64,000 nucleotides of DNA. It comes from Candidatus Latescibacterota bacterium (GTDB lineage: Bacteria > Latescibacterota > UBA2968 > UBA8231). The DNA lies in assembly GCA_965223905.1 (NCBI GenBank), contig CBDCXV010000011.1, positions 1,440,001 through 1,504,000 on the forward strand, in the 5' to 3' direction. Below are positions 2,937-57,320 of this stretch, in pieces (the first letter of the stretch is position 1; every line of letters starts with the position of its first letter). The position numbers were made by a program, and so were the translations under genes. The notes under the pieces were generated by a model. The model was given only the letters and a program-made list of their open reading frames with translations. It did not search any database and was not told the DNA's origin.

Positions 2937-3124
2937 CCAGTTCGTCACATTATCCAAATCAAATCACTGACACATATGCTTGCCATTTATCGTTCTGAAT
3001 TCGTAGATGTTATCTGAACAAGATTGCAGATATTCGGTTGGAAAACGGAGGAGAGTTTGTAACATTTTGTTACGAACTATAACTATTTGGAAAACTTCTT
3101 CGTAACGGCCGGATTGAACGTGAC

Positions 3125-4519: not shown

Positions 4520-4550
4520 CTATTCCGACCCCTTTGAACTTTGGCAGCGT

Positions 4551-6085: not shown

Positions 6086-6102
6086 ACCCACAGATGATAC
6101 TG

Positions 6103-6134
6103 AATGTCGGCACTTAATCGCAACTGCCGACATT
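6103..6134. promoter_or_regulatory. Inverted repeat, probable AbiEi autoregulatory operator
   Basis: Perfect AATGTCGGCA-N12-TGCCGACATT about 18 nt upstream of the abiEi ATG; AbiEi proteins are known to bind promoter inverted repeats. Confidence 0.65.
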
Positions 6135-6168
6135 TAATATCAGCCAGCCGGTCCGGCGGACGCGCCCT

Positions 6169-8006: not shown

Positions 8007-8036
8007 GTCGATACCTCTTCCACGCAGCGGTCCAAA

Positions 8037-10184
8037 TTATCCCGCCGACACGCCCTTCAGCATCTCCAGGATGTCCTTCTCGATACCCTGAATATCCGCC
8101 TCGATATCCCCGAGAGGCCGCGGCGGCTTGTACTGGTAGAAGTAGCGGTTGAAGTTGATCTCGTAGCCGATCAGGCCAACCATCCCGTCCCTGTGATCCC
8201 GCTTCGATGTGTCGATCCAGGCATCCGGCACATGGGGCTCGACCTCGCGCTCGAAGAAGGCGCGGACGCTGTCCGGCACTCCATCCTCTCCGGTGGGATC
8301 CTTTCCATCTGACAGGGGCACCCGCTCGGTGTCCCGCTGCTCCGGGTCGGGTTCGGGTGCGCCGTCCTTGCCGCGGCAAATCCCCGCGGTTTCGTCCCGC
8401 TCTGAAAGGGCATCGAGTATCGCTGTCTTGAGCGGAGCCGGGAGCTTCAGGCCGGCTTTCGAGGCCGCTTTCGCAAGCTCCGCAAGGAACGCCTCCCGGT
8501 CCTTGTGAAGGGTGCCGGGCAGGGTCTCGAGCATGGCCAGAACGGCTTCCTGCAGGGCGCGGCCTGCCTCCTCCTCCCTGACGCCGGCGTCCCCGCGCTT
8601 CTTCGATCTGGCAAGGTTCTGAAACCCCTTCTGGTCGCCCAGCCGGGCGATCCATTCCGGGTTCGCCTGGAAATTGAGCCGCAGCGGCCGTTCCACGGTG
8701 ATCTTCCGGTACCCGAACCGGGACGTCGAGAAGACGCGGCTGACGACGGTCTCTTCCTCCTCTCCGTCCTTTGAGGGCTTGCGGGTCTCGCCGTCACGCA
8801 AACCGGCGAGGAGTTCGAGCACATCGGCTGCCTTATCCGGTGGTATCTGGCGCCGCTTGTCCCCGAGGCTCCGCCGCATCGGCGCCCAGAACCCCGTGGC
8901 GTCGATGAGCTGCACCTTTCCCCTGCGGGCCCCCGCCTTGCGGTTGCTCAGCAGCCACACATAGGTGGCGATGCCGGTGTTGTAGAAGAGCTGCTCCGGC
9001 AGCGCGATCAGGGCCTCCAGCAGGTCGTTCTCGAGGATGTAGCGGCGGATCTCGCTCTCGCCGCTGGCGGCGTCTCCGGTGAACAGGGGCGAGCCGTTCA
9101 TGATGATGGCGATGCGGGTGCCCCCCTCGTCCGCTGCTCTGGCATGGGCGAGCATGTGCAGCAGGAACAGGGTCTGGCCGTCGCTGATGCGCGGCAGACC
9201 GGGGCCGAAGCGGCCGGACGCCCCGCGCTCGTGCTCGGCTTCGACCGCGGCCTTGTCCCGCTTCCAGTCCTTGCCGTAGGGCGGATTGGCGATCAGGTAG
9301 TCGAAAGACTGGCCGGCATGGCGGTCGTTGGAGAGGGTGCTTCCGAAAGCGACGTTTTCCGCGTCGCGGCCCGACGGGTCCTTCATGAAGATGTCGGACT
9401 TGGAGACCGCCCAGGTCTCCGGGTTCACTTCCTGGCCGAAGAGATGGATCTCCGCCTGCGCATTGATGGCGGGACGAACCAGTTGGCCGTTGCTGCTCAT
9501 GCCCCCGGTGATGTGCTCCTTGGCGATCATCAGCATGCCGCCCGAACCGCAGCAGGGGTCGTAGACCGAGCGCACCACCCCGGTGCCGGCGATCTCCTTT
9601 TCGTCACCGGAAAGCATGAGGTCCACCATCAGATGGACGACGTCGCGGGGCGTGAAGTGCTCGCCGGGGTTTTCGTCCAGGGCCTCGTTGAAACAGCGGA
9701 TCAGCTCCTCGAAGATCGTCCCCATGCCCGGGTTGTCGATCGCGTCCGGATGCAGATCGACGCTCCCGAACCGTTCCAGCACCTGGAACAGCAGTCCCGC
9801 CTCGTCGAGCTTGCTGATGGTGTTGTCGAAGTCGAACCGCTCCAGCACCTCGCGCATGTTTGGGCTGAAGCCGGCGATGTAGTTCCTGAGGTTGGCGGCG
9901 AGGTTCGGCGCATCGGCGAGCAGCTTGTCGAAGTCGTAGCGGGAGGTGTTGTAGAAACTGAAGCCGGATGTTCGACAGAGCTGGTCATTCAGGTCTTCAA
10001 GGCCCCGCTCCGACAGTTCGGCCTGCCGTTGCAGCACCTTCTCCTTGGTCGGTGCGAGCACGCAGTCGAGGCGGCGCAGCACGGTCAGCGGCAGGATGAC
10101 GTCCTGGTACTTGCCGCGCTTGAAGCTGTCGCGGATCAGGTCCGCGACCCCCCAGAGAAAACTGACTATTCCGCTGTGGTTCAT
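8037..10184 (-). CDS. hsdM: Type I R-M N6-adenine methyltransferase
   Basis: GEHFTPRDV, YDPCCGSGGML, ANPPY, YEINFNRYFY. Confidence 0.95.
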   Translation of the reverse strand: MNHSGIVSFLWGVADLIRDSFKRGKYQDVILPLTVLRRLDCVLAPTKEKVLQRQAELSERGLEDLNDQLCRTSGFSFYNTSRYDFDKLLADAPNLAANLRNYIAGFSPNMREVLERFDFDNTISKLDEAGLLFQVLERFGSVDLHPDAIDNPGMGTIFEELIRCFNEALDENPGEHFTPRDVVHLMVDLMLSGDEKEIAGTGVVRSVYDPCCGSGGMLMIAKEHITGGMSSNGQLVRPAINAQAEIHLFGQEVNPETWAVSKSDIFMKDPSGRDAENVAFGSTLSNDRHAGQSFDYLIANPPYGKDWKRDKAAVEAEHERGASGRFGPGLPRISDGQTLFLLHMLAHARAADEGGTRIAIIMNGSPLFTGDAASGESEIRRYILENDLLEALIALPEQLFYNTGIATYVWLLSNRKAGARRGKVQLIDATGFWAPMRRSLGDKRRQIPPDKAADVLELLAGLRDGETRKPSKDGEEEETVVSRVFSTSRFGYRKITVERPLRLNFQANPEWIARLGDQKGFQNLARSKKRGDAGVREEEAGRALQEAVLAMLETLPGTLHKDREAFLAELAKAASKAGLKLPAPLKTAILDALSERDETAGICRGKDGAPEPDPEQRDTERVPLSDGKDPTGEDGVPDSVRAFFEREVEPHVPDAWIDTSKRDHRDGMVGLIGYEINFNRYFYQYKPPRPLGDIEADIQGIEKDILEMLKGVSAG

Positions 10185-26869: not shown

Positions 26870-29800
26870 CTAGTCCAGCAAACCGCTGAGCGCCGAAGCA
26901 GCTTCCCAGCCCGTGTCCGACTCCGCGAGCTGCTGGCGTTGTGTGCCTGTGAGCCACTCCGCCCGGCTCCCAGTGGGGTCGCGAGTTACCGCAAGGACAT
27001 GGTCGATCTGCTCGGCCACCGCGCGGACGTGAGAGATCACACCGACCATGCGCCCCCCGGCCGCGACGGTTCCCAGAGCCTGGACCGCAGAGTCGAGGTT
27101 GTTGCGGTCCAGCGAGCCGAATCCCTCGTCCAGGAACAGCGACTCCAGCCTTCCACCGCTGCGCGCCATCATCTCCACCATGCCGAGTGCGAGCGAGAGG
27201 GAGGCGATGAACTGCTCCCCTCCCGAGAGGCTTGCGGGGGAGCGGGCCTGCCCGGAATCCCGATCGAGGACGCGCCACTGCTCTTCGGTCTCGCCGGGGT
27301 CGACGAAGGCGTACCTGCCGGCGCTCATCTCATCGAGCATCCGGGACGCATGAACCAGCAGACCCCGTGATCTCCGCAGGGTCAGCCACTTCAGGAACGC
27401 GCCGGGTTTGAGGGCATCCTCGAGATCGCCGAGCGCCCGCTCCTTGCCTTCGACCTCCGCGAGAAGCGCTCGGAGATCTCGGACTTCGTCGATTATTGCA
27501 ACGAAGTTTTCCTCAGACTCCCTGGCGCGACGTTCTTCGAAGCGGGCGTCGTTCGCCCGGGTACCTGCGCTTTCCAGGACGGCATTGAGGTCGCGGACGT
27601 CGATCTCCGCGTCCAGCCGGTTTCCGAGTGCAGCCAGTTCCGTGCGTACGGCTTCTGCACGGCCCGCCGCGGCCCGTGCGGCCTCGTCCGCGGCCCGTAA
27701 TACCTCCGCTGCCATGGTTTGAAGCGCGGCGATTTGCTGCCCCTCCAGCGCGCCAGCGTCACGGACAGAAACCGCTGGGGGAACGTCTGCGTCGAGCGCC
27801 AGCCTGCTGATCGACTCGACCAGGACGTCGCGGTGGGAATTGAGGTCATGAACAATCTCTTCGAGCGATGCTTCGACTTCCTCGGCTCGCCGTCTCGCCA
27901 AGACCGATCGCACGTTACGAGCATCTGCAAGTCTCATCTCCAGGCGTTGTCGTTCGGATGCGCGTTCCGCCAACACCTGTTCACGCTCCTGAGCCGAGTT
28001 CGTCTGCGCGTCTACCGGGATTGTGTCCACCTCGTGCAGGTCCGCCGGGTCCCCGGGCAAGTCCAAGCTGGGCCGGTACGCAGGTGGCACGGTGCGGACC
28101 GCCTCCATCAACCGCTCCAGGGCATCGTCCGCCGCCGTACGGGCGTGTTCCACCAACGTATCGGCGTTGGCAGCCCCCGTACGGGCGACGGTGGCGGCTG
28201 TCTCCTGACGGGTAGTTTCCGAGCTCAGATCCCCGTAGACGCAATCGTGTTCCGCCAGCCGATCCGCTTCTTCGGTACAGGCGGCCTCGAAGGGAGCGAG
28301 CAGGGTGTCGCGCGGGGGTACGGGCGCTCGCACATCCTGATCGACATGCCGGGCGAGCTCATTGCGCGCCTCCGTGATATGCGATTCAGCGGCGGCAAGG
28401 CGACCTCCAGCATCGGCGACCTGACGCTCGATGCCTGTCCGTTCCGTGCGGATCCTAGTCAACGCCTGCTCTGCCAGTCGAGCAGCCTGGCTCGCGGCGT
28501 CGGCTATCTGCTCCGCCTCACTGAGCCGGGCTCCCTCGAGGGGCTCCCAGTCGGCGGGAAGGTCGCGGCGGCAGATCGGGCACTCGTCCCCCGGGTGCAG
28601 GCCGTGTGCGGCGGACGCCGCCGACTCCGACCGCCGCGCCAAGGTCAGATGCTCCTGGGCCTCGGCTGCCGCACGGGTGGCGCGTCGTTCATCCTCCTGC
28701 GCGATCTGCAGTTGTTCTGCCAGGACGGCGTCGGCTTGTCCGAGTTCGCCAAGCTGTCTCTGCCTCTCTTCCAGCTCAGCCGCCCGCTCCTCGTACCGCG
28801 AGTACCCCATGTCGACCGCCGTGCGGCGCCCCTGCGCTCTCTCGACACCTTCGGCGAGTGGACCTCTGTTTGCGGCGTGCCTTTCCGCCCTTTCCCCGGC
28901 GCTCTCGGCCTCCGCAGCCAGGCGCTGCGCTTCGGCATGCTCTCGTGAGGCCTCTTCGACTGCGGCGCGGAGTTCCCGGGAAGCGTTTTCGCTGTCCGCG
29001 ATCAGGCGGCCCATGCTCCTCAACGTCGTCAAGGCCGCCGCCACTTCCTCGCTCGTGGGACCGTCGTCTGACGGGATGCCCGCCAGCTCATCCTCCAAGT
29101 CCTCCTGCCGTTGCCTCAGGGCCGCTTCCTCTTCGCCGAGTTGCCTTTCAATCGCCGCAATCGGCGCCAGCCTTCCGGCGGCCCGCTCGGTATCCAAGGC
29201 GCGCAGCCGTTCGAGGACGCCGGAGGCCGTTTGCTGCATCTCTTCGGCGGCGAGCACGGTATCGAGCGCTGTAGTAGCCGCCCGTTCGTCCTCGGATGCA
29301 GCGGCGGCAAGGTCGCGGGCTTCGTCCAAGGCCTCCTGGAGTTGCTCCAGATGCGCTTCGGGATCTTCGGGATAGGCGGTGGCCGCCTGCTCCAACCGGA
29401 CCCGCAGCGTGACGGCTTCCTGGCGGGCTTCCCCTGCGAGCCCCCCTGCCTCTTCAAGCTCGTCGGTGGGCCAGACCTGACGCAGGATCCGGCTCCGGTC
29501 GCGCGGTTCGTCCTCGACCAGCAGGCGGGCGAAGCGACCCTGAGGCAGCACGACGGTACGGAGAAACGCGTCGCTGTCGAGCCCGAGCAGCTCCTTGACG
29601 CGCTCGTTGACCCGACGGACCTGCTCAACCTGCTCGACCGTCTCCCCGGCGGCGCCGAACCTGCGGAGCTGGGCGTTGGGTTGGCCTACCGCACGGTCGC
29701 CGGCACGGCGCAACGTGCGGACGACCTCCCATGTTTCGCCGGACACCTTGAACCGGAGCACGACCCTGAGATGTATCGAGGTGTCGTTCATCAGCTCCTG

Positions 29801-29980
29801 GTTGGCCTGCGCCGTGAACGTCGTCTGCCCGTAAAGGGCATAGGTGATCGCCTCCAGGATGGAGGACTTCCCCGCCCCGGTGTCGCCGACGATGGCGATA
29901 TGGTCCCGCCCGGTGAAGTCGATGGAGACGGGAGCCCTGAACGACCGCAGCCCTTCGATGGTGAGCCTGAGTGGACGCAT
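26870..29980 (-). CDS. sbcC: SbcC/Rad50-like SMC ATPase
   Basis: Walker A GDTGAGKS, Q-loop LPQG, coiled coils, zinc hook CPIC, LSGGE, LFLDEGFG, VISH. Confidence 0.95.
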   Translation of the reverse strand: MRPLRLTIEGLRSFRAPVSIDFTGRDHIAIVGDTGAGKSSILEAITYALYGQTTFTAQANQELMNDTSIHLRVVLRFKVSGETWEVVRTLRRAGDRAVGQPNAQLRRFGAAGETVEQVEQVRRVNERVKELLGLDSDAFLRTVVLPQGRFARLLVEDEPRDRSRILRQVWPTDELEEAGGLAGEARQEAVTLRVRLEQAATAYPEDPEAHLEQLQEALDEARDLAAAASEDERAATTALDTVLAAEEMQQTASGVLERLRALDTERAAGRLAPIAAIERQLGEEEAALRQRQEDLEDELAGIPSDDGPTSEEVAAALTTLRSMGRLIADSENASRELRAAVEEASREHAEAQRLAAEAESAGERAERHAANRGPLAEGVERAQGRRTAVDMGYSRYEERAAELEERQRQLGELGQADAVLAEQLQIAQEDERRATRAAAEAQEHLTLARRSESAASAAHGLHPGDECPICRRDLPADWEPLEGARLSEAEQIADAASQAARLAEQALTRIRTERTGIERQVADAGGRLAAAESHITEARNELARHVDQDVRAPVPPRDTLLAPFEAACTEEADRLAEHDCVYGDLSSETTRQETAATVARTGAANADTLVEHARTAADDALERLMEAVRTVPPAYRPSLDLPGDPADLHEVDTIPVDAQTNSAQEREQVLAERASERQRLEMRLADARNVRSVLARRRAEEVEASLEEIVHDLNSHRDVLVESISRLALDADVPPAVSVRDAGALEGQQIAALQTMAAEVLRAADEAARAAAGRAEAVRTELAALGNRLDAEIDVRDLNAVLESAGTRANDARFEERRARESEENFVAIIDEVRDLRALLAEVEGKERALGDLEDALKPGAFLKWLTLRRSRGLLVHASRMLDEMSAGRYAFVDPGETEEQWRVLDRDSGQARSPASLSGGEQFIASLSLALGMVEMMARSGGRLESLFLDEGFGSLDRNNLDSAVQALGTVAAGGRMVGVISHVRAVAEQIDHVLAVTRDPTGSRAEWLTGTQRQQLAESDTGWEAASALSGLLD

Positions 29981-29981
29981 G

Positions 29982-31238
29982 TCAGCTCCGGCTGCTGTTC
30001 CGCTCCGAGGCGAGGCGGTCGAGGATTTCCTGCGCGCCCGAAATGAGCGGCGTCAGCCCGAAATCGGGTCTCCTTCCCTGACCCACCCCGCCCAACGCCT
30101 GCTCGAACAGCGTTGCCACGATGTCGTGGGGCGCCCTGATCCCGCGCGCCGCGTTGTTGCGCCATTCGAGAAACAGCTCTTCGAGCCCGGGTTCGGCCTC
30201 CCCTTCGCGGTCCGGGTCAATAGGGCTCACCGGCCGGTTCTCAACTACGTTCATCAGCTCGAAAACAGCGCAGTTCGGCGACCATTTCAACAGCCGATCC
30301 GCCAGGTCCGGAATCGGATCGTCCGAGCCCACACGCGCCTTCAGAATGCAGCCGTCGAACCCGCCGTTTGCGGCGCATTTCTCAAGTTTCGCCAGGGTGC
30401 CGGCAAACTCTACGAGGGGCCGTCCGCACGGCAGGTCGTGCGTGCCCACCTGCACGCCGTCCCCGATCGTCACGAGCACCGCCTGCTTTGTCTGCTCGCG
30501 CTCGCCGAAGTCCAGCGGGACCAGCGAGCCGGCGTACCTTCCTTGCGCCTTTCCTCCCGGCAGGAGCTGCGGGTCGTGAAGGTGCCCGAAGGCGCAGTAC
30601 AAAGCCTGCTGGAGACCATCGACGTGCGTGGCGTAGTCCTCTCCCACGGTAATCCGCCGTTCCGACCTGCCCGGCCGGGCGTCATGCACGAAAAGGTGGG
30701 CGGCGTAGAGGACGATCCCTCGTTTGCCCGCGCGTTGATGCGCGACCTCCAGCAGACCTTTGTTCAGGGTTCCGATGCCGTCGGCGTAGGTGCCCTCGAA
30801 CCGGGATGGATCGTCGGTCGCGTAGTCGGCGATGGCACTGGGAGGGATGAATGGCACACACGCCACGGCGACCGGCTCCTCCGTGACCTCCGGATACTCA
30901 ACCACTTCGGGTCGAGTGACCAGCCGCAGCCGCCTGGGGCTCGCCGCCCCTGCCAGCTCGTCGATCACGCCCAGCAGAACGGACGAATCGTGGTTTCCGG
31001 TCAGCACCAGCGTCGGTGCGGTTTCCGCAAGGCCACTCAGCGCCTTGACACCGAGCTTCAGGGCTTCGTGCGGGGGACGCGAGGCGTCGAAAAGATCGCC
31101 GGTGTGCAGGATCAGATCCGGTCGGGCAGATTTCGCGAGGTCCAGCAGTCCGCGGAGCGCCTGCACCTGGTCCGGAGTGCGGTCGTGCCGGCCGAGCTTG
31201 GCCCCCAGGTGCCAGTCGGAAGTATGGAGCAGCTTCAC
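29982..31238 (-). CDS. sbcD: SbcD/Mre11-like nuclease
   Basis: LLHTSDWHLG, GDLFD, GNHD, FGHLH, YAGS; GTGA coupling with herA. Confidence 0.95.
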   Translation of the reverse strand: MKLLHTSDWHLGAKLGRHDRTPDQVQALRGLLDLAKSARPDLILHTGDLFDASRPPHEALKLGVKALSGLAETAPTLVLTGNHDSSVLLGVIDELAGAASPRRLRLVTRPEVVEYPEVTEEPVAVACVPFIPPSAIADYATDDPSRFEGTYADGIGTLNKGLLEVAHQRAGKRGIVLYAAHLFVHDARPGRSERRITVGEDYATHVDGLQQALYCAFGHLHDPQLLPGGKAQGRYAGSLVPLDFGEREQTKQAVLVTIGDGVQVGTHDLPCGRPLVEFAGTLAKLEKCAANGGFDGCILKARVGSDDPIPDLADRLLKWSPNCAVFELMNVVENRPVSPIDPDREGEAEPGLEELFLEWRNNAARGIRAPHDIVATLFEQALGGVGQGRRPDFGLTPLISGAQEILDRLASERNSSRS

Positions 31239-33058
31239 AGGTCGATCCGGGGACCGTCCAGGGCTTCGAGGTTCCCCTCGATCTTCCGAACCTGGGCCTG
31301 CTGGCCGTCGGTGTCCGTCGCCGCTTCGTCCGGGTTGGTCGCGAACGGCGGGAAGGGAAACCGGATCGGGATCGGCTCCGGCACGATCGGCTGGGACGCC
31401 ACCATGGTGCCCGGCATGAAGCGGGTGGCGCGCTCGCGCAGCGCCGGAGTGAGGAACCGGTAGGTCTCGGACTCGCTTGCATCCAGCCGCCCGGCGACCT
31501 TCAGCGACGCGTTGCGGGGCAGCGCCTGGGCCACCGCGGAGGCGGCCTGCTGCGCCCCGATCAGCAGCACGCCCAGAGAGCGACCGCGTTCCGCGATATC
31601 CACCAGCAGGTCCTTCAGCGGCGAGAATCCCTGTGCCGGGGCGTACTTGTTGAGCTCGTCGAGGACCACGAAGCGCAGCGGCAGGCGGCCGGTGCCCTGC
31701 TTCTCGCGCCAGATCCGCTCCAGAAGCGCGCCCACCACGAAGCGCTGGGCGTCGTCGTGGAGGGTCGAGATGTCGACGACATGGAGCTTCGCGTTCTCCG
31801 ACGAGACCGGCTCGAGACCGCACCCGATCAGGGGGCCGATGTGGCGGCGCAGCCGCAGAAGCCTCCGGAGAAAAGCCTGCCGCGTGCCCGACTGTGTGCG
31901 CCCGAACCACTCGTCGATCACGGCCTCGTCCTCTTCCGAAGCGATGCCTTCGAGCAGGTCGATGAGGTCGCCGAAGTCGCGAATTACGTGCCCAGCCCCG
32001 GAGGCCACCGAATCCGGGTCGCGCTCGGCGAGACGGTCGGGGTTGTAGCTCGTGTTGGGAGAAACGGCATGGGCGATCACCACTGCCCCGGACATATCCC
32101 CTTCCAGCCGCCGCAGGCGCCGCAGGAGCTGGATCCGGACCTGCTGCTCCACGAAGCCGACCTGCGTCGAGCGCTCGTCGTCGGAGGTGAAACAGAACTG
32201 CAGTAGCTGCTCGCGGATGAACTGCTCCGGAGTCCAGCCGTAGGGGTTCACGTCAGCGGTCTTGCGGGTCCTGACGTTGGAGACGGTGTTCGGCGACGAG
32301 TCGGATTGGCGGGGAGCGTAGAGGCGGACCGACCGAAACGGCGCGGGATTTTCGATGCCCAGGGCGCGCCATTTCTCCAACTCCTCCGGCTTGCCGGCGA
32401 ACTCGGCGTTGGCCCGGTCCAGATGGAGCAGGTCCTCCCCCTTTGTATTGAAGACCAGCGCCCGGACGCTTTCCCGCCCGGCCCTTCCGCCCAGCAGATC
32501 CATGCCCTGCTCGGTCTCCAGCAGTTGGTAGAGCAGAAACAGCGCGTAGGAGGTCTTCGTCGCGACTCCCGAAATTCCCGAGATCGAGACGTGGCCCCCG
32601 GAGCGCCCATCCACGAAGCGCATGTCCGCATACACCGGCGCCCCTCCCAGGTCGAGGCCGAGGGGCAGCTTGCCGCGGATCATCTCGTCCTCGAAGAGGG
32701 CGACCTCCCGGTGTTTTCCGGCGGCCCGGGTCACCACTCCCCCGGCATGGGGGGCGAGGAACAGTTCCGGACTCACCCGCAGTACCCGCACCTCGGCTCG
32801 CCGCACCAGCTCTGCAGGAAGGGTCCGCTCGATAACGCGGCCTGTGTCCGAGGGAAGATCGGCTCCTTCGAAGCGGGAGAGCAGCTCGGTGACGATCCCG
32901 TAGTGGATTACCTCCCGCCCGTCAGGCAGCTCGGTGGAAACGGTGACCAGCTCGTCGAGCTGGATTACGGTGTCGGCTTCCAGCACCACGTGGAAGGTCC
33001 GCGAGTCGCTGTCCACCGAGCCATCGATGAGCCCGATGCGTTTTTGCTCACCGCTCAC
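31235..33058 (-). CDS. herA: HerA-family ATPase/translocase
   Basis: N-terminal HAS-barrel-like region, Walker A variant SGISGVATKT, VVLDELNKYAP, IAERGRSLG, GAQQ. Confidence 0.88.
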   Translation of the reverse strand: MSGEQKRIGLIDGSVDSDSRTFHVVLEADTVIQLDELVTVSTELPDGREVIHYGIVTELLSRFEGADLPSDTGRVIERTLPAELVRRAEVRVLRVSPELFLAPHAGGVVTRAAGKHREVALFEDEMIRGKLPLGLDLGGAPVYADMRFVDGRSGGHVSISGISGVATKTSYALFLLYQLLETEQGMDLLGGRAGRESVRALVFNTKGEDLLHLDRANAEFAGKPEELEKWRALGIENPAPFRSVRLYAPRQSDSSPNTVSNVRTRKTADVNPYGWTPEQFIREQLLQFCFTSDDERSTQVGFVEQQVRIQLLRRLRRLEGDMSGAVVIAHAVSPNTSYNPDRLAERDPDSVASGAGHVIRDFGDLIDLLEGIASEEDEAVIDEWFGRTQSGTRQAFLRRLLRLRRHIGPLIGCGLEPVSSENAKLHVVDISTLHDDAQRFVVGALLERIWREKQGTGRLPLRFVVLDELNKYAPAQGFSPLKDLLVDIAERGRSLGVLLIGAQQAASAVAQALPRNASLKVAGRLDASESETYRFLTPALRERATRFMPGTMVASQPIVPEPIPIRFPFPPFATNPDEAATDTDGQQAQVRKIEGNLEALDGPRIDL

Positions 33059-33137
33059 TTTTCCTGGCCTCCCATCATTTTCCTGTCGATTTGCTCCCTG
33101 CTTTATTGTTTCCCAAAGTCACTAAACAATTTCCCCT

Positions 33138-33656
33138 CTATGGGTCGGACATAATTTTAAAGAACTGATCAGCTCGATCAACTACCAGCCGAATGTCTTC
33201 AGTTCGATAAACCTCAGTGTAAAGCCGTTCACAGCCCACCGTTACACATTCAATAGCAGTCTTTTCCCAAAGATGTCTGCATGGCCATTATTTGACTAGC
33301 TTTAGAAAAGGTGTCGTCGTCTTGTGAGATCGCATCCTTTCGTTTACATCGGAAGCGAAACCTACCTTAAATCGGCCAGGATCCAATTCAGGCTCAAGCA
33401 AAATTAAATAGAACATCCCAGGGGATAGATCACTTTGGTCCTCATTTCTGACTTCGCCCTCCTCGACCAATAAAGTTTCCTCTAAGAGGTTATAATCATC
33501 TCTGGAAATGTGAGACAGCTTCTGTCCTCCAGCCTTCTCTGTTTTCTTCAAAACAGTGGAAAATCCCATACGCTTAACAATTTTGTGGATAGTCTGTCTA
33601 CTACGACCGTGCTGTTTTGCTATTTCAGCAATAGATACCAAGTTCTGGTACATCAC
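33138..33656 (-). pseudogene. Low-GC HTH plus GIY-YIG (T5orf172-like) gene with an in-frame TAA at 33288-33290
   Basis: SIAEIAKQHGRSRQTIHKIVKRMG (HTH); GMFYLI...FKVGFASDVNERMRSH. The same frame continues WPCRHLWEKTAIEC...FFKIMSDP to TAG at 33138. Confidence 0.7.
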
Positions 33657-34612
33657 AATCCTAATCCTTCCTTGTTGAGCTCCATCACCGCCGCACGCAC
33701 TGCGCGCAGGGCCAGGCGCGGGTCTCCCTGCAAATGGTGCAAATGGCGCTCCAGCCCGGCAATCGGGACCATGTTGACCGGCGCGCGTTCATCTCTATGG
33801 GGAGCGGAAGCGAACGCAGGAAGCCAGCCCGCGGCGGCATCCGCCGCCTCCACCGCCAATGCTTGGCCGACTCCGGCCGGCACCTCGATCCGCACGATCC
33901 CAGCCCACGGACTGGCCCACGGTCCCGGCATGCCCACCCGCAGGTAGCAGCCGTAGAGGTCGTCCCGCATGGAGAACAGACCGGAGCGTTCCCCGGAGGA
34001 CAACCCCGGCACCTGGCCCCAAGCCTCGGGTTCCAGCATCGAGCGGTGATGGGTCTTCACGTAGCCGATGACAGGGAGCGTGCGGGTGCGCCGGATGTGG
34101 TGCAGCGGTCCGTCGATCACTGTAAGCCAGTCCCGAACGGAGAGCCCCTCGGCAATGGCGGCTTCGGTATCGCGCATCCGCCGGCGCAGGCGCTCGCGGG
34201 CGGCCTCAAGTTCGTTGCTGGTGATCGAGTCTGCCTCCCAGCGCCACCCCCCTGGTTGTGGCGGCAGCTCGACCCGGTGCCCGTCGGTGAAGATCGCCGC
34301 CCGACCCACGGTAACCTGATCGAAGCGCAGCGGCCTCTCCCCCTCGACCAGCACCGCACCGGCTCCCCAGCTTCCCGCCAAGCCCGTCACCGTTCCCCGG
34401 TCATCAGTACGTGTCAGGCGCGCCTCGACGCGCATGGTTCCGTCCACGAATGCCAATCGCCGCGGCCGTTGCGTCTCCGCGGGCCGATGGCCGCGAAACA
34501 CCCCATCATCCTCCACCAGCTTGCATGCCTGGGCGTCGGCAGAATCGATGCCGACCTGAAAGCCGCCTCCGAAACCGGTATCGAACGGCTCCACGCCGAT
34601 GGTACTATTCAA
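33653..34612 (-). CDS. nurA: NurA-like nuclease
   Basis: LAFVDGTMR, TVIDGPL, GYVKTH, IVRIEV, RAPVNMVPIAGLERHLH; first gene of the herA-sbcD-sbcC operon. Start chosen at TTG after AAAGGA. Confidence 0.75.
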   Translation of the reverse strand: MNSTIGVEPFDTGFGGGFQVGIDSADAQACKLVEDDGVFRGHRPAETQRPRRLAFVDGTMRVEARLTRTDDRGTVTGLAGSWGAGAVLVEGERPLRFDQVTVGRAAIFTDGHRVELPPQPGGWRWEADSITSNELEAARERLRRRMRDTEAAIAEGLSVRDWLTVIDGPLHHIRRTRTLPVIGYVKTHHRSMLEPEAWGQVPGLSSGERSGLFSMRDDLYGCYLRVGMPGPWASPWAGIVRIEVPAGVGQALAVEAADAAAGWLPAFASAPHRDERAPVNMVPIAGLERHLHHLQGDPRLALRAVRAAVMELNKEGLGL

Positions 34613-34791
34613 GCCCGGTCCTTTGCCAGCGCCACCCAGAATGCGAGCGGCGTAGCCGGGCTCGATACTTAAGTACACGTCCGATTTCAACAGATACACT
34701 CAATGGCCGCTCCCATCCGTTGCCATACGCCCGCCCGAACCCTCAAGGTGCTCAGGCTGCATACCGGTAAGCATTTCCCGGATCCTATCCC

Positions 34792-35964
34792 TCAGGCCGC
34801 GGTCTGAAAAGGCTTCCAGGCTTCGCCCGCGGCCGCGGCCTGGCGCTCCAGCTCGCTGCGCCAGCCCACCACCTCACCGGACTTGATGCGATTGATGTCG
34901 AAGCCGGCGTAGCGGTCCTCGAGCGTGTCCCCCAGCTTCTGCGTTTCCGCCCAGCGGTCCCAGGCCGTCTTCATCCACTCGTGGGGCAGGGCCTCGCGCA
35001 CCGCGGGGTCGAGCTGCCAGGCCTGGCGCGCGTCCGCCACCGACGGCTCCCCGGTGAACGGGCCCTTCCACTTCGACCAGCCGACCGACAGGGTGTTGCG
35101 CTCGCGGTCGGGGACGGTGTGCCCGGTGTGGATCGTCGCCCCGTTGCGGATCAGGGCTTCGCCGGCCTTGAGCCGGATCGCCACCTGGCCAGGCAGGGGG
35201 TCGGTGCCGTTCCAACTGGGGGTGTACGGCACCCCCTTGTCCTTCATCCCCTGTGGCAGCAGGACATCGTGCTCGAGCGGGGTCCGCCACCGGTGGTGGC
35301 TCCCCGGAATCAGCTCGTGGCACTCGTCGTCGACCAGCGCCAGGAACATGCTGACGCCGTCCCGCTCTTCGACGAGCCTGGCGTTGTTGGCGCGGATCTC
35401 TTCCCAGCGGATCCTCTCGACTTCCTCGGAGTATGCCTCGGAGCCCTCCTGCTCGTTCCTCTGTGCGACGTAGGCCTTGCCGGTGCCCCACCAGGTCACG
35501 TCCCGATGCCAGCTCGGGCCGTTCTCGTGGCGCCGGGGATTGCACCACAGCAGCATACTCGTCATCACCATTTCCTCGGGCCCGAGGCCGTTGCACCAGG
35601 ACTCGACGAAACCGAGGAAATCGGGCGAGCCGTGGAACTCGGCAAAGCCCGGCTCCCCGAAGGCGGGGTGGGTGAGGCCCCGGATCGCCCACGGCTCCTC
35701 CTCCCGGGCGCGGTGCACGTACCCCTCCGAGCTGTCGATCCTGCTGTAGCCGTTCTCCGGCGCACAAGCCTCGGTGACGCGGCGGCCGGCTTCGCGGAGG
35801 ATGGGAATCCAGGGGTTGCCGACGAAGTCGTCGATGATGACGAAACCGTGCTCCTGCAGGTGGGCGAGCCTCTCCGGCGTGCCCCCGGGGGCGGCGAGGT
35901 CCGGCTTTGAGTCGGCAAAGGCGGTGGCCCGGTAAGACGGCGGCGACTGCGGCTGATCGTTCAT
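34792..35964 (-). CDS. PhyH-family Fe/2OG dioxygenase
   Basis: HLQEHGFVII, SWHRD, LIPGSH, IHTG. Confidence 0.8.
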   Translation of the reverse strand: MNDQPQSPPSYRATAFADSKPDLAAPGGTPERLAHLQEHGFVIIDDFVGNPWIPILREAGRRVTEACAPENGYSRIDSSEGYVHRAREEEPWAIRGLTHPAFGEPGFAEFHGSPDFLGFVESWCNGLGPEEMVMTSMLLWCNPRRHENGPSWHRDVTWWGTGKAYVAQRNEQEGSEAYSEEVERIRWEEIRANNARLVEERDGVSMFLALVDDECHELIPGSHHRWRTPLEHDVLLPQGMKDKGVPYTPSWNGTDPLPGQVAIRLKAGEALIRNGATIHTGHTVPDRERNTLSVGWSKWKGPFTGEPSVADARQAWQLDPAVREALPHEWMKTAWDRWAETQKLGDTLEDRYAGFDINRIKSGEVVGWRSELERQAAAAGEAWKPFQTAA

Positions 35965-40554: not shown

Positions 40555-40795
40555 GGGTCCTCTTTCTTCGGGGGCTGTCCTGGTCGGAAAGGAACCGCGA
40601 TAAGGGCGGGACCGCCCGGGGCGCTCGCGTACCGGCGGACAGGACGCGCGTAATCTGGCCAGACAGGGCCTGCGGCGCCACCGGGGGGGCCCGGGTTCCC
40701 CGCCGCGCCTGCGACATTTTGACCATGATTTGCAGGGCCAGTACCTTGCGGAGAAACAGCAAACTGCCCCTCTTGCAGACCGCTTCGACATAAGC

Positions 40796-41632
40796 TTGAA
40801 CACGAACTTCGATTCCTACATCGAGGCCTGGCGGGAGCGCCTGAGCCGCGAGACCGCCGAACTGGACGAGTCGCTTGCTCAGGCCCGCGCCAATGCGAGC
40901 GCCTGTGCCGCGCTGCTGGTGGAGAAGTTCGGTGCCTCCGAGGTGTATCTCATCGGCTCCGTCAGCGGCGCGGGGCGCTTCCACGAGAGATCCGACATCG
41001 ACCTCTGCGTCCGGGGCCTCGACTCGCATCGCTATCTCCAGGCCCTGTCCGAAGCGGCTGAAATCGCCGGGCGGGACGTCGACCTCATACTCATCGAGGA
41101 GGCCCCCCCGGAGCTGGTCCGCGGCACGCAACGGGAAGGAGTTCTACTCCCCCGGAAGTTCCTGCTTCTCAAGGCTGACATCGACCGGGAAATTGCGCAG
41201 ATCGAGCGCCTGCTCGCCGAATCCCGAAGCGACCTGGGCGGCGTGGGAGGAATCCCGAGCCGCCTGGAGGTGCGCGGGGTTGCGAGCGTACTTCACGATT
41301 TCTATTCGGGGATCGAGCGCGTATTCGAGCGCATCGCGGTCGAGCTGGACGAGGAGCTGCCTCGAGGGGGGGACTGGCACAGCCAGCTCCTGAACCGGAT
41401 GGAGGAAGATGTCGAGGGTGTCCGCCCCCGGGTCCTGACCTCCGGCATGGCCGAACGGCTGCGGCCCTTTCTGCGTTTCCGCCAGCTGTTCCGGAACATC
41501 TACGGCGGACAGCTGCGCTGGGAGCGCAGCACCGAGCTGCTTCAAGAGGCGGATGAAGTGTGGCCGCTATTCAAGCAGCAGACAGAGGAGTTCAAGGGCG
41601 TGCTGGCGCAGCTTCACGACGGCTGCCAGTGA
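40796..41632 (+). CDS. Fused MNT nucleotidyltransferase + HepT-like HEPN protein
   Basis: YLIGSV...SDIDL...VDL (MNT), then LHDFYSGIE...GDWHSQLL...FRQLFRNIYG (HEPN) in one frame. Confidence 0.8.
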   Translation: MNTNFDSYIEAWRERLSRETAELDESLAQARANASACAALLVEKFGASEVYLIGSVSGAGRFHERSDIDLCVRGLDSHRYLQALSEAAEIAGRDVDLILIEEAPPELVRGTQREGVLLPRKFLLLKADIDREIAQIERLLAESRSDLGGVGGIPSRLEVRGVASVLHDFYSGIERVFERIAVELDEELPRGGDWHSQLLNRMEEDVEGVRPRVLTSGMAERLRPFLRFRQLFRNIYGGQLRWERSTELLQEADEVWPLFKQQTEEFKGVLAQLHDGCQ

Positions 41633-43180: not shown

Positions 43181-43341
43181 CTGTTAGCTCCTTTCGGTGT
43201 TCCTGTGGGATGACTCGCGGGGATTTCAATCTGGTTCCAGGCTGTCTATTTAATCGATCCGGAGGCGTACAAGATAACGCAGGGCAGCCGCACTTTTCGC
43301 CGCGGATGCCGCCGCCCAAATGCAAATGCTGGCACCACACC

Positions 43342-44553
43342 TCAGGTAGGTGTGCCCGCGGACCGGACTTCGCAACGAAGGGCGCGAACCCTTACCGCCA
43401 GTTCGCGGATGCGCGCCTGCAGATCGCCGATCATCCCCGACAGGTCGAGCGCGGCGACTTCGAGTCGTTTCCCGGCGTGACGAACCTGATGCACTACATC
43501 CTCCGCTTCGCCCCCGGCATAAACAAGCAGGCCCCCCGGCAGATCCAACGCGGTGGCATAGGCGAGAAGCTGGTACAGGTCGGCGTTGGGGACACGCTCA
43601 TCCTGGACCCGCTTGTACTTGGCATCACCGACGAATCTGCAGGTACGGCCGTCCCACCACGACAGGTCGGGCTTCAACGCGACTCTTCCCCTCTCGTCGA
43701 GGAAGACTCCGGATTTCTCCTCGTCGGACCGGAACGTCCGTTCCGAAAGGCCCAGTTCGTCGCGGAGAGCCCGAGTCACGAATTCCTGGAACACTTCGTT
43801 CATGTCCATCAGGAAACCTGCTGCCCGAACGGTGCCGCGTCCGACTTCGATGGCGGCGTAACGCAGGATGAGCCGTGCCAGGGTCACGACCTCCCGGTAG
43901 TGCTCGTTCAGCCGGTCGAACGCGACCTCCGGGACAGCGTTCGGCGGGAACTCTTCGAGGCTCACGTTGTCGAGCCTGGCGCCGATCCCGGCCAGCGCGG
44001 TACGGGACCGGGGACGGATGCGCAGCCGGCCGAGACTCGCGGCCGCGGCCTTCACCAGCCTGTTGGCCAGCACATCCTCCGTGAAGTCGTCGTAACGGAC
44101 TTCGATCGGCACCGGGAGAACGAAGCGCCGGCGAAGCTGCTCGCCGATGCGGATTCGCCCGCGGACCGTGTGCAGGGCCTCTTCCCTGATTTGATAGCCG
44201 TGGAGCAGCCCACCCGCAAACGCCCGCTGCGCCGCGGAGACGAGCGCGGGGGCCAGCGCTTCGACCAGGGTAGGTGCATCCTCGAAGTCGAAACGGTCCT
44301 CCCGGAAACGGATCCCGTCCATTGCGAAAGAAGCCAGGTAGAGCACGCGCGCGATCGGCAGCTTGGGACGGATTGCGACCGAGAGATCGCCGATTTCGAG
44401 CGCGCCTATGGTGGAACCGGGCGTCAGGTGGTACTCGTTCTTCGTCCCGGCTGCCGGCTCGACAGTGAGGATGTCGAGAAGCGCGTCTCGTTGGGAAGCT
44501 GAAAGCTGTACCGCTTCGCTTTTCTCGTGCTCCTTCAGGTCAAGCTTCGTCAT
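43342..44553 (-). CDS. mcrC: McrC nuclease subunit
   Basis: IRPKLP, FLMDMNEVFQEFV, LKPDL...VGDAKYK, DLYQLLAY. Confidence 0.9.
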   Translation of the reverse strand: MTKLDLKEHEKSEAVQLSASQRDALLDILTVEPAAGTKNEYHLTPGSTIGALEIGDLSVAIRPKLPIARVLYLASFAMDGIRFREDRFDFEDAPTLVEALAPALVSAAQRAFAGGLLHGYQIREEALHTVRGRIRIGEQLRRRFVLPVPIEVRYDDFTEDVLANRLVKAAAASLGRLRIRPRSRTALAGIGARLDNVSLEEFPPNAVPEVAFDRLNEHYREVVTLARLILRYAAIEVGRGTVRAAGFLMDMNEVFQEFVTRALRDELGLSERTFRSDEEKSGVFLDERGRVALKPDLSWWDGRTCRFVGDAKYKRVQDERVPNADLYQLLAYATALDLPGGLLVYAGGEAEDVVHQVRHAGKRLEVAALDLSGMIGDLQARIRELAVRVRALRCEVRSAGTPT

Positions 44554-46141
44554 TGTCCGGAACCCCGCCTTCTTGCTGTTCTTCCTCATCCTGCCTCGTG
44601 GCGCTCTCCCGTCGGAGTCTATCGAGATCGAACTCTGCGCGGGGGTCGCGTTCCCCGTAGAGGCGCTCTTCGATGTAAGGGAGGACATTGTGCTCCCAGA
44701 TCATGCCGGCCTTGTCGTCGTCGAGCCTGTCCTTCTTAATGAAATAGCTCGGCCCGATGGATGCCTGCCGGTCGTCCAGCTTCTCGTTCGCCCGTTCGAC
44801 CGCGTCCGCCACCCAAACCATTTCCGGCGCATGCTTCTCCAGCCAACGCCTGAGCAAGCCCTGTACAGGCGGCCTGTCGGGATGGAACTCCACGAAATGG
44901 AAGCGGCGGCGCAGGGCGAGATCGACGAGGGCGATGGAGCGGTCGGCGGTGTTCATTGTACCGATGATGTAGAGGTTTTTGGGCAGGGCGAAGGACTCGC
45001 TGGAATACTGCAGGTCCATCTCCTCGTCGCGGTACTCAAGCAGGAAGTAGAGCTCGCCGAACACCTTGGCGAGGTTGCCCCGGTTGATCTCGTCGATGAC
45101 GAGGAAGTGGTTGGAATTCCGATCGGACCGGGCCGCTTTGGCCGCCTGGAGCAGAGGTCCGTTTCGCAGTTCGAAGCCGGGGTGTCCGTCGACAAGCCCG
45201 GGCCGGAAGCCCTGGACAAAGTCCTCGAACGCGTAGGACGGATGGAACTGCACCAGCTTGACGCGCTCCTCCGCCCCGGCGAGGCAGCGCGCCAGCTTCC
45301 GCGCGGCGTAAGTCTTGCCGGTGCCCGGCGGTCCCTGAAAGATGACCTGCCGTTTGTCGTCGAGCAGTTTCTCGATATTGCGAAGCTCTTCCACGTCGAA
45401 CAGCAACTCGGCAGCGAGCGCTTGCAGGTTGGGCGCTGGTTCCGTGGAATCCATTGAAACCTCTACCTCCTCATCCCCTGTCTCAGCGTCATCGACATCG
45501 GCTGCATCCGGTTGACTGTCTGCCTGGATTCCCCAAACCACCGACTGGGCCTCAAGAGGATTACTGGGTCTCTCAAGTCCCTTCGAGCGCGCTTTCTCAA
45601 CGAGGAACTCAAGGAAGTTCAAGGCATGCTCGTACCGAGTCCCTTCATCTGCCCTCCGGGGAAGGGAGGGATACCCGGTGAGTTTGTACGCATCGGAAAA
45701 GAGCTGCTCTCTGTAAGGGGGGTATCGATCGGGGTCCATCCCCATCAGCAGCACGGAGATCACGTTCAGGCGGACTCCCGGGCCTTTGATCACCTCCTCG
45801 GGAAACTGGCTGGCGAAAGAGCGGATGCGGGCACCCGGCCCTTGCTCGCCGGCGGACCAGAAGGCTAGCAGCGATGCCGATGCTTCGTCCGTGAATTCAT
45901 CTAGCCAGCGGATGACTTTTTGCCCATTACGCCAGTAGACCAGGTTGTTCCGGTTGTCCCTGATCGCAGCCTTGAGGAGATCGAGCCAACTGCCGTTTCC
46001 CGCGAGCAGGGCGTCCCGGGCGGCCGCCAGGTTTTTTCCTATCTCACGCTTGTAGACTATCTCCTCGTCATCCAGGCGACCGCTGTCGACGTACTGCCGC
46101 ACATCTTCGATGAAGCCGTCCCACTTGTTGTCTTCGGTCAT
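44540..46141 (-). CDS. mcrB: McrB GTPase subunit
   Basis: GPPGTGKT, VQFHPSYAFEDF, IDEINRGN, GTMNTADRS, ALRRRF. Confidence 0.92.
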   Translation of the reverse strand: MTEDNKWDGFIEDVRQYVDSGRLDDEEIVYKREIGKNLAAARDALLAGNGSWLDLLKAAIRDNRNNLVYWRNGQKVIRWLDEFTDEASASLLAFWSAGEQGPGARIRSFASQFPEEVIKGPGVRLNVISVLLMGMDPDRYPPYREQLFSDAYKLTGYPSLPRRADEGTRYEHALNFLEFLVEKARSKGLERPSNPLEAQSVVWGIQADSQPDAADVDDAETGDEEVEVSMDSTEPAPNLQALAAELLFDVEELRNIEKLLDDKRQVIFQGPPGTGKTYAARKLARCLAGAEERVKLVQFHPSYAFEDFVQGFRPGLVDGHPGFELRNGPLLQAAKAARSDRNSNHFLVIDEINRGNLAKVFGELYFLLEYRDEEMDLQYSSESFALPKNLYIIGTMNTADRSIALVDLALRRRFHFVEFHPDRPPVQGLLRRWLEKHAPEMVWVADAVERANEKLDDRQASIGPSYFIKKDRLDDDKAGMIWEHNVLPYIEERLYGERDPRAEFDLDRLRRESATRQDEEEQQEGGVPDNDEA

Positions 46142-46438
46142 GGTTCCCTCCTCGAAGCCGGACTGCACTTGCCGCGCAGTCGGCCAGGTTTTGGTTGTTT
46201 CCAGGCGCCATGCCGTCTCACCCACTCCCTGAGCAACCGGCGCGAATCCTGCCAGGGATAACAGCTTTTTGAAACAATCGGGTCAAGCGAGATTGTGTTG
46301 CCGCTGGTGCCGGATGACCCTTGGCGGGATGCGGAGCCCGCCGGCAATAAACCTCGGCGGCCCGCAGCGAAACATTAGATTCCCCGGCGCAACGGTTTTC
46401 CCAACAGACTCATCGGTTCCCCTGCAGAAAGGCTTTAA

Positions 46439-51921: not shown

Positions 51922-53199
51922 ATGGAGCCCTTCCAACGCCCCCAGGTCGACACGCTCGTCGAGCGCCTGGCCGAGCCCGCCCGCCACATCATCGCCCTCT
52001 TCGGGCCGCGCCAGACCGGCAAGACCACCATCGCCCGCCAGGCCCTGGGCCGGATCGACCTCGAAAGCCGCTACCTCGCGGTCGACGAGCCCGAGGTCCC
52101 CGGACTCCCCGCCCCGCACGATGAGGATGCGGCCACCTTCCGGTTGCACCCGGAGCGGGACTCGAAATGGCTGGTGCGCCAGTGGGACGCGGCCCGAGAG
52201 CAAGCGGGACGATCCCCGCGCGGGTCCGTGCTGGTCCTCGACGAGATCCAGAAGATCGAGGGGTGGTCGGAGACCGTGAAGGGGCTGTGGGACGCCGACC
52301 GCGCCCGGGACTGCCCCCTGCGCGTGGTCATCCTGGGCTCGGCTCCGCTGCTCATGCAGTCGGGGCTGAGCGAGAGCCTCGCCGGCCGCTTCGAGACCAT
52401 CCGCGTCACCCACTGGTCCTTCGCCGAGATGTCCGCGGCCTTCGGCTTCGACCTGCCGAAGTACCTCTACTTCGGAGGCTGGCCGGGGGCGGCGCCCCTC
52501 GTCCGGAACCCCGACCGGTGGCGCGGCTACATCCTCGGTGCCCTCGTGGAGCCGAACATCGAGCGCGACCTCCTGGCCATGACCCCGGTGAAAAAGCCGG
52601 CCCTGCTCAAGCGGCTTCTCGAGCTGGGCGCCGACTGCTCCGGGCAAATCCTTGCTTACAACAAGATGCTGGGCGAGCTCCAGGACGCCGGGAACACGAC
52701 CACCCTGGCGCGCTATCTCGACCTGCTCGCAAGCGCCGGCCTGCTCGCCGGCCTGCAGAAGCACACCGGCAGCCCCGCTTCGAGGCGGGCTTCCAGTCCC
52801 AAGCTCAACGTGCTGAACACCGCCCTGATGACGGCCGGCTCGGGGTACTCATTCGATGAAGCGCAGGCCGACCGCACCTTCTGGGGCCGCATCGTCGAGA
52901 GCGCCGTGGGCGCGCACCTGTTCAACACCGCCGAATCCGATATGCGCCTCCTCTACTGGCGGGAGGGGTCGAACGAGGTCGACTTCGTGCTGAAACGGGG
53001 GAACCGCGTGGTCGCCGTCGAGGTGAAGAGCGGCGAGGAGCGGAAGCCCACGCGAGGCCGGAGGCCGTTGCCGGGGATGGCTGCCTTCGAGGGGCGCTTC
53101 GGTCCCTGCGGCCGTCTGCTTGTCGGGGTGGACGGGGTTCCGCTCAACGAGTTCCTCACGGCACCCGCCGGTGAATGGTTCGAGGAAGCATGGGGGTGA
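51922..53199 (+). CDS. AAA_14 ATPase with DUF4143 / PD-(D/E)xK-like C-terminus
   Basis: GPRQTGKTT, LDEIQK, LGS, SLAGR, GGWP, EVDFV...VEVKS. Confidence 0.9.
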   Translation: MEPFQRPQVDTLVERLAEPARHIIALFGPRQTGKTTIARQALGRIDLESRYLAVDEPEVPGLPAPHDEDAATFRLHPERDSKWLVRQWDAAREQAGRSPRGSVLVLDEIQKIEGWSETVKGLWDADRARDCPLRVVILGSAPLLMQSGLSESLAGRFETIRVTHWSFAEMSAAFGFDLPKYLYFGGWPGAAPLVRNPDRWRGYILGALVEPNIERDLLAMTPVKKPALLKRLLELGADCSGQILAYNKMLGELQDAGNTTTLARYLDLLASAGLLAGLQKHTGSPASRRASSPKLNVLNTALMTAGSGYSFDEAQADRTFWGRIVESAVGAHLFNTAESDMRLLYWREGSNEVDFVLKRGNRVVAVEVKSGEERKPTRGRRPLPGMAAFEGRFGPCGRLLVGVDGVPLNEFLTAPAGEWFEEAWG

Positions 53200-57314: not shown

Positions 57315-57320
57315 GCGAGT

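Follow-up and report, generated by a model that had tools for sequence, protein, structure and literature searches.

The nurA-herA-sbcD-sbcC operon of a Latescibacterota bacterium, a probable DNA end-resection module with a patchy and apparently lateral distribution

Introduction

Does a bacterial gene cluster that joins nurA and herA to sbcD (mre11) and sbcC (rad50) serve the repair of broken DNA, or does it protect the cell against foreign DNA? The question is raised by a locus of Candidatus Latescibacterota bacterium (assembly GCA_965223905.1), which lies within a stretch of 64,000 nucleotides of contig CBDCXV010000011.1 (positions 1,440,001 to 1,504,000), here called the window, and to which all coordinates without further label refer. 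A first-pass annotation, made from the letters of the window, had described the cluster as a complete operon of archaeal style and had considered it a mobile machine for processing DNA ends, acting either in RecBCD-independent repair or against phages and plasmids. Here we report the identity of the four proteins, their distribution in and beyond the phylum and an insertion between two of the genes, and we consider that the operon probably processes the ends of double-strand breaks.

Results

All four genes are co-directional, with long reading frames within 26870-34699 of the minus strand, and the matches to Pfam, NCBIfam and PDB confirmed that the quartet is real. HerA gave no match to Pfam, and its residues 7-586 matched the HerA of Deinococcus radiodurans (PDB 7f6d_B, E 1.9e-110). 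Its P-loop, GISGVATKTS at 161, is non-canonical in that it does not follow GxxxxGK[ST], and it is identical in D. radiodurans HerA; the Walker B motif VVLDE lies at 464. The protein is strongly conserved, as the best 120 database clusters were 73-100% identical, and its match to the structure of a defence-type HerA (PDB 8xau) reached only E 0.022. For NurA, the reading frame of 348 amino acids (aa) scored 23.3 bits (cut-off 21) with Pfam PF09376, residues 79-337 matched the NurA of the same structure (PDB 7f6d_H, E 5.9e-14), and the DG motifs LAFVDG and VIDGP were located at 82-87 and 194-198 in the numbering of that frame.

SbcD scored 129.1 bits with the bacterial sbcd model TIGR00619 (cut-off 77.65), was also matched by Metallophos (PF00149), and carries the five phosphoesterase motifs of SbcD/Mre11 (DWH at 8, GDLFD at 47, GNHD at 81, AHL at 180 and GHLH at 218). 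SbcC was matched above cut-off by each of the Pfam families AAA_23, SMC_N and SbcC_Walker_B, and it shows the split ABC-type head and long coiled coil of SbcC/Rad50, with Walker A GDTGAGKS at 32, LPQG at 145, the CPIC hook at 467, SLSGGE at 917 and a Walker B/D-loop, LFLDEGFGSLD, from 948. The catalytic and ATPase motifs that were checked are intact in all four proteins, as the first-pass annotation had stated. The proteins did not qualify as the archaeal Mre11/Rad50 type, because Mre11_Sulfo gave 47.4 bits against a cut-off of 500 and the Rad50 model PRK02224 gave 99.2 against 1087. The description as archaeal in style thus holds for the gene set, while the proteins themselves are bacterial, with HerA and NurA of the Deinococcus type and an SbcD above the bacterial sbcd cut-off.

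The junctions of the genes are not alike. The stop codon of herA and the GTG start of sbcD share the four bases GTGA at 31235-31238, and a single base separates the stop of sbcD (29982-29984) from the ATG of sbcC at 29980. The stop of nurA at 33653 and the start of herA at 33058 are approximately 595 base pairs (bp) apart and do not abut. Translational coupling is restricted to herA-sbcD-sbcC and does not include nurA, and the overlapping or nearly abutting junctions noted at first were right for these three genes, whereas the low-GC insert between nurA and herA had been missed. For nurA, the TTG start at 34612 is preceded by AAAGGA and results in a protein of 319 aa, which fits the 315-331 aa of its relatives, and the end of the gene given in the first-pass annotation is retained. 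The third-position GC content was 0.76 for sbcC, 0.76 for nurA and 0.86 for herA versus 0.88-0.93 for the flanking genes, consistent with the weaker bias described earlier for sbcC.

Table 1. Positions of the operon genes and of the features adjoining them in the window
Feature	Position	Strand	Description
nurA	33653-34612	minus	319 aa from TTG 34612; predicted partner of HerA and 5'-3' nuclease
nurA, longest open reading frame	GTG 34699 to 33653	minus	348 aa
herA	31235-33058	minus	607 aa; predicted HerA/FtsK-type hexameric DNA translocase ATPase, Deinococcus type
sbcD/mre11	29982-31238	minus	418 aa, GTG start; predicted nuclease subunit
sbcC/rad50	26870-29980	minus	1036 aa; predicted SMC-like ATPase with coiled coil and CPIC zinc hook
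Upstream intergenic region	34613-34791	minus	about 59% GC; presumed promoter region
PhyH-like gene	34792-35964	minus	conserved; marks the insertion slot
Low-GC insert	33058-33673		616 bp, 41-48% GC; at the nurA|herA junction
Gene with helix-turn-helix (HTH) and GIY-YIG-like parts	33141-33656	minus	172 codons; in-frame TAA at 33288-33290

We examined what other resection systems the genome contains. The assembly (7.92 Mb in 11 contigs, 64% GC, 93.6% complete by marker genes, with a contamination estimate of 5%) holds no second SbcC or SbcD, and only the SbcD of the operon exceeds the sbcd cut-off in all of the 10 operon-bearing genomes examined. The operon is the sole SbcCD of these carriers, one of the results that the first-pass annotation had named in advance as speaking against its proposal. 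RecC was not found in the genome. A gene for AddB is present and intact (ADDB_N and PDDEXK_1) and is adjoined by an AddA-like gene, in which the UvrD and nuclease domains are spread over three reading frames (G000 C10:332998-339278; L026 2998-9278). In the same genus, genome G104 has both AddA (open frame of 1156 aa) and AddB intact, and neither AddA nor AddB was found in genome G103. The split addA is due either to decay of AddAB in the genus or to sequencing errors. From these sequences AddAB looks dispensable in the genus of the window, and the operon may therefore be the main resection route in this lineage. The role in RecBCD-independent repair that had been suggested is plausible, given that RecC was not found, that addA is divided among three frames and that neither of the two Add proteins turned up in the nearest relative.

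The genome also has two full-length recA genes, at C10:1781341-1782309 and C9:611396-612367, and only the copy on C10 has a promoter-like region with a palindrome resembling a LexA box. The second copy may be real or may reflect the estimated contamination.

The operon is distributed patchily. In the phylum (168 genomes), HerA was detected at E ≤1e-20 in nine genomes, two of them among the 52 that are of high quality. Seven of the nine carry the window type (80-100% identity), and the remaining two consist of genome G167, with a version 43-49% identical, and a genome with one weak partial match. The SbcD of window type (72-93% identity) is confined to the same seven genomes, and the other 103 genomes of the phylum with an SbcD match have proteins that are only 26-33% identical to it; in all four operon-less genomes tested, this divergent SbcD was above the sbcd cut-off. 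Outside the phylum, four genomes (G168-G171) have a HerA 81.5-84.5% identical to that of the window, whereas their RpoB shares 51-62% identity with the window's across most of the protein and 66-71% in the C-terminal 250 residues; in G164, which belongs to the family of the window, HerA and RpoB were 82% and 83% identical, respectively. Loci titled Vicinamibacterales showed 72-73% identity to the window for Mre11 and 63-68% for Rad50, and loci of the same-family type were just as close (72-73% and 64.5-68%).

The order nurA-herA-sbcD-sbcC with all four genes was observed in 9 of the 12 related loci that have long flanks on both sides, and the other three (L008, L012 and L015) contain a Rad50-like frame of unreported position. 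In a tree of the four concatenated proteins (13 rows), the window type, the type of L016 and L017, and two loci titled Vicinamibacterales formed an unresolved three-way split, and a single clade of the window type with the L016/L017 type was not rejected by the approximately unbiased (AU) test (p 0.37), so that the tree alone shows neither one acquisition nor two. The patchiness, the gap between the identities of HerA and RpoB, and the different SbcD of operon-less genomes suggest a lateral cassette that replaced the native sbcCD; it looks as if the whole block of four genes spread across phyla in this manner. The view of the operon as patchy, laterally acquired and outside the syntenic core is borne out by the 9 of 168 genomes with HerA and by SbcD and SbcC of the operon, whose resemblance to copies from genomes of approximately 51-62% RpoB identity exceeds that to the usual SbcD of the phylum.

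The chromosomal position of the operon is marked by the PhyH-like gene, which is present in 61 of the 75 other genomes of the family. The operon follows this gene, which adjoins nurA, in the loci L004, L016 and L017. In G167 (locus L115), a divergent cassette follows the same PhyH-like gene within 10 bp; its genes are in the order herA-sbcD-sbcC-nurA, and their identities to the window are 41, 27, 37-38 and 32% (L115 1843-9238; G167:C1:2577001-2592000). To judge from these loci, the PhyH-like gene is followed by the operon or by its divergent version in both genera that carry one. L116 and L117, which lack the operon, gave no match to any of the four operon proteins next to the PhyH-like gene, and the gene on the rad50 side of the operon sits elsewhere in other genera. 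As a separate observation, L016 and L017, which are of the same-family type, have a gene of the ImmA/IrrE type (Peptidase_M78, 483 aa) approximately 2 kb upstream of nurA, at 3491-4939 and 4040-5491, respectively.

Inspection of the nurA-herA junction revealed the low-GC insert listed in Table 1. In a contig of a relative with approximately 92% identity (run X2), position 33057 is joined to 33674 across 59 other letters, and on this basis the insert was defined as 616 bp that replace a spacer of 59 bp. It is single-copy in the genome, is absent from the closest locus (L004) and alters the 3' end of nurA. The gene within it was matched weakly by Pfam HTH_23 in its N-terminal part and by T5orf172 (PF10544), which at 18.8 bits did not reach its cut-off of 20, and PF10544 is precomputed for one homologue of the protein. 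Intact homologues have 172-198 aa, and in the closest of them the first 122 residues are 82% identical; at the position of the in-frame TAA the homologues carry T and the closest one Q. The predicted structure of the 82%-identical homologue (mean pLDDT, the predicted local distance difference test score, 85) has an N-terminal winged HTH, and residues 79-173 of this model aligned to GIY-YIG nucleases at middling scores, namely HIGLE (Z 6.7, root-mean-square deviation 2.6, 85 residues aligned), Slx1 (Z 6.6) and I-TevI (Z 4.3). A Foldseek comparison of the model of the inserted protein with PDB gave no match at E ≤0.001, and the weaker rows were HTH regulators matched at the N-terminal HTH only. 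The insert is present in contigs from four public runs of three studies, with no alternative letter reported at the stop codon; there was no RNA run among the public runs listed as holding the locus.

The family of the inserted gene comprises 240 metagenomic relatives of approximately 173 aa. Of the 81 family loci examined (L031-L111), most of those with enough flank to compare are lower in GC than their flanks. No link of the family to the operon was seen, as none of these 81 loci, metagenomic and viral, gave a match to any of the four operon proteins beside the homologue. Its members are single insertions between unrelated genes in diverse contexts, and an integrase was near a member in 2 of 22 loci whose neighbours were scanned. 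Because of the low GC, the unrelated contexts and the lack of an operon match in the 81 loci, we take the inserted gene for a free-standing selfish gene, and the family seems to behave like a homing-endonuclease-like element of bacterial chromosomes. The insert is thus best described as a putatively selfish HTH and GIY-YIG-like gene, now bearing a stop codon, that is inserted between nurA and herA and would have arrived after the acquisition of the cassette.

The equivalent nurA-herA junction of L008 holds an unrelated insert of 2 kb (6058-8000) with two genes; the product of one (167 aa) matched no family, and that of the other (422 aa) was matched weakly by Peptidase_M78. Immediately upstream of nurA, the same locus encodes a BsuBI/PstI restriction endonuclease.

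Regulation of the operon was approached from the upstream regions of lexA and recA of the genome itself, which define the LexA-box type as GAAC-N4-GTTC (TGAACGAATGTTCA at lexA and CTGAACAAAATTTCAG at one recA). The window contains 15 matches to this type, all with two mismatches, versus 15.1 expected by chance, and as none of them is upstream of nurA, regulation by the SOS response was rejected. An inspection by eye of the eight loci with an extractable upstream stretch showed no shared upstream motif.

The operon of the window has metabolic neighbours, encoding a dihydrodipicolinate synthase (DHDPS)-like protein, an epimerase, the PhyH-like protein, a pyridoxal phosphate (PLP) enzyme and an enolase-type protein, and the nearest defence genes of the window are at least 16 kb away on either side. 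The flanks of 11 related loci (84 open reading frames) are lineage-specific, and metabolic genes account for most of the frames with a family match; PIN, methylase, restriction, M78 peptidase and transposase genes occur here and there among them.

Two defence clusters are located towards the ends of the window. The first (1108-10184) contains a gene for a Fic protein of SoFic type (E 8.7e-101) together with the type I restriction-modification genes hsdS (3125-4519) and hsdM (8037-10184), between which AbiEi/AbiEii (4551-6133) and an AAA_21 ATPase resembling HEC-01A/AriA (6762-8006) are found. The second (51922-63998) contains a PDC-S01 ATPase (AAA_14 and DUF4143), a protein of 1379 aa without a Pfam or PADLOC match (53175-57314), a DrmMI/type IIG-like methyltransferase of 1343 aa (57321-61352) and a Dsr2-like protein (61491-63998, E 2.3e-136) that extends past the end of the window. 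Elsewhere, the regions 40730-41632 and 43210-46225 encode a fused protein with nucleotidyltransferase (Polbeta) and HepT-like parts, as well as an McrB-like AAA_5 ATPase at 44540-46225 beside a protein of 430 aa without a family match.

Discussion

We consider the locus to be a bacterial operon for the end processing of double-strand breaks and estimate the probability of this reading at about three in four. The sequences themselves show the identity of the genes, the integrity of their motifs, their coupling, their copy number and their distribution. The mechanism that we propose is modelled on the solved and assayed complexes of Deinococcus and archaea. SbcCD (Mre11-Rad50) would recognise DNA ends and open or clean those that are blocked or form hairpins; the HerA hexamer would then use ATP hydrolysis to thread the duplex into the NurA dimer, and NurA would degrade the DNA in the 5'-3' direction, leaving a 3' tail for RecA. 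In this respect, passages of two studies connect related genes with repair, the nurA and herA genes of D. radiodurans being tied to DNA-damage survival assays (PMC9960219) and hepA mutants of Thermus being sensitive to ultraviolet (UV) light (PMC5448004).

Several observations weigh against the repair function. SbcC scored 209.7 bits with TIGR00618, the sbcc model that is its best in NCBIfam, and remained below the cut-off of 478.5; this cut-off is strict, as it was passed in only 1 of 14 well-known control genomes. The coupling of nurA to herA may be lost through the 616-bp insert. No LexA-box-like site is located upstream of nurA, although lexA and one of the two recA copies carry one, and induction by damage is therefore unsupported. 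The PIN, restriction-modification, M78 peptidase and transposase genes dispersed over the flanks of other lineages belong here as well, and the lateral mobility of the operon would also fit an accessory role. Finally, a passage of a 2026 review says that bacterial NurA-HerA proteins mainly degrade viral DNA (PMC13748450).

The latter statement, a claim of a defence role for bacterial NurA-HerA, speaks for the possibility that the operon is an anti-phage or anti-plasmid system, in which SbcCD and HerA-NurA together would break down foreign DNA, linear or replicating, that enters the cell, much as unprotected ends are degraded by RecBCD. Such a role would agree with the patchy, lateral distribution, with the defence genes that the window contains in the ranges 1-10 kb and 52-64 kb (SoFic, type I restriction-modification, AbiE, Dsr2-like and DrmMI-like), with the PIN, restriction-modification or M78 peptidase genes that flank some relatives, and with published accounts of other HerA-family ATPases that power defence systems. 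The component set of no system described in PADLOC-DB 2.0 is present at the operon, however. The matches to PADLOC models reflect a generic P-loop (LmuB 7.6e-23, mad3 8e-21 and mad8 2e-15 on the ATPases), both models of HerA gave only E 7e-4 and 5e-3, and SbcD and NurA had no match. MAD3 and MAD8 are components of ATPase-nuclease modules according to a published description (PMC13662399), and the mad8 and mad3 matches were discarded as evidence of a system, being judged a generic P-loop similarity because the mad8 model matches both HerA and Rad50. The HerA of the window is of the repair type by comparison with the sequences of solved structures (E 1.9e-110 versus 0.022 for the defence type) and is unusually conserved; none of 50,697 phage records matched it, and the 4 matching records among 72,556 plasmid records did not exceed 41% identity. 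In addition, the immediate flanks of 8 kb consist of metabolic genes in synteny with L004, the closest locus, and the operon supplies the only SbcCD of the 10 carriers examined. Without a PADLOC system or a phage record, and among metabolic, syntenic neighbours, the anti-phage proposal of the first-pass annotation is an unsupported minority possibility, which we regard as improbable.

Two further explanations concern other substrates and the state of the operon. The module could mainly serve DNA transfer, that is, uptake, donation or the processing of transforming DNA, as reported for HepA, the HerA homologue of Thermus. We think this highly unlikely: the UV sensitivity of Thermus hepA mutants mentioned above implies that repair is involved in that organism too, HerA is coupled here to SbcCD and not to transfer genes, and no competence or conjugation genes were seen among the neighbours scanned, in which no search aimed at such genes was made. 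Alternatively, the operon could be partly disabled in this strain, with the insert breaking the coupling of nurA and herA, the amounts of NurA and HerA out of balance and the module decaying. The replacement of the 59-base spacer, the changed 3' end of nurA and the retention of translational coupling for herA-sbcD-sbcC alone point in this direction, but all four reading frames and their motifs are intact, and the insert-bearing form persists, since it is seen in run contigs from three studies. A promoter-like site at 33181-33154, inside the AT-rich insert, faces herA; it is the only one of the scan, which was uninformative (one promoter-like site versus 0.8 by chance, and five terminator-like sites versus 5.5). 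Disablement is thus an unlikely account, and end processing by an intact operon is preferred.

Regarded as an end-processing operon, the locus can be compared with known systems. The HerA of D. radiodurans (PDB 7F6D, 7WRW and 7WRX; PMC9960219) shares with that of the window the P-loop GISGVATKTSYALFLL, the Walker B motif and the RGRSLG/GAQQ region, and its NurA has the DG motifs and the RAPxN motif in common with the window. In contrast to D. radiodurans, the pair forms one operon with sbcD and sbcC here, and nurA and herA are split by the 616-bp insert. The sbcCD genes of Deinococcus are presumably elsewhere in its genome than nurA-herA. Thermophilic archaea have the order herA-mre11-rad50-nurA, unlike the nurA-first order of the window, and this operon was reportedly described by Constantinesco in 2004. 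The archaeal operon likewise combines the four functions, with a presumed division of labour common to both, and it differs from the window not only in order but also in that the window proteins are of bacterial type. Sir2-HerA, HerA-DUF4297, Lamassu and MADS also place a HerA-family or SMC/ABC-type ATPase beside a nuclease, as in the window, which, unlike those defence systems, has no Sir2, DUF4297, LmuA or Toprim partner.

The gene layout has a precedent in a bacterium of another phylum, Oceanithermus profundus, whose cluster nurA-hepA(herA)-sbcD-sbcC comprises the four genes of the window, sbcD and sbcC following herA; a passage of Blesa et al. 2017 reads its architecture as resembling that for break repair in archaea (PMC5448004). 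The same paper proposes that SbcDC was recruited to a resident nurA-herA, whereas for the window the whole block apparently moved and displaced the native sbcCD. A review passage limits the biochemistry of bacterial NurA-HerA to Deinococcus and Thermus (PMC13748450), and in the literature on the quartet and on defence, supplements not covered, we found no paper that tests a bacterial operon of the four genes. The layout is already known from Oceanithermus (2017) and the operon is probably an ordinary end-resection module; the sequences add to this the apparent lateral displacement of sbcCD, a slot that seems to be used by two versions, the possible decay of AddAB and the putative insertion of a selfish gene.

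From these details we tentatively suggest an exchangeable end-resection cassette, of which two non-orthologous versions (27-41% identical) would occupy one slot in one family, each supplying the only SbcCD of its genome, and which would be a lateral substitute for the native SbcCD together with the AddAB/RecBCD-type machine, the nurA-herA junction being a recurrent landing site of selfish genes. We find this suggestion more doubtful than probable. As a single locus, the operon is an expected repair module. The block of four genes forms one unit in a large set of soil-type genomes from different phyla; it is complete in 9 of the 12 long-flank loci, and the other three contain a Rad50-like frame as well. 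If it is true that the cassette replaces both SbcCD and AddAB, it would represent a third major route of end resection in bacteria, and one that spreads laterally.

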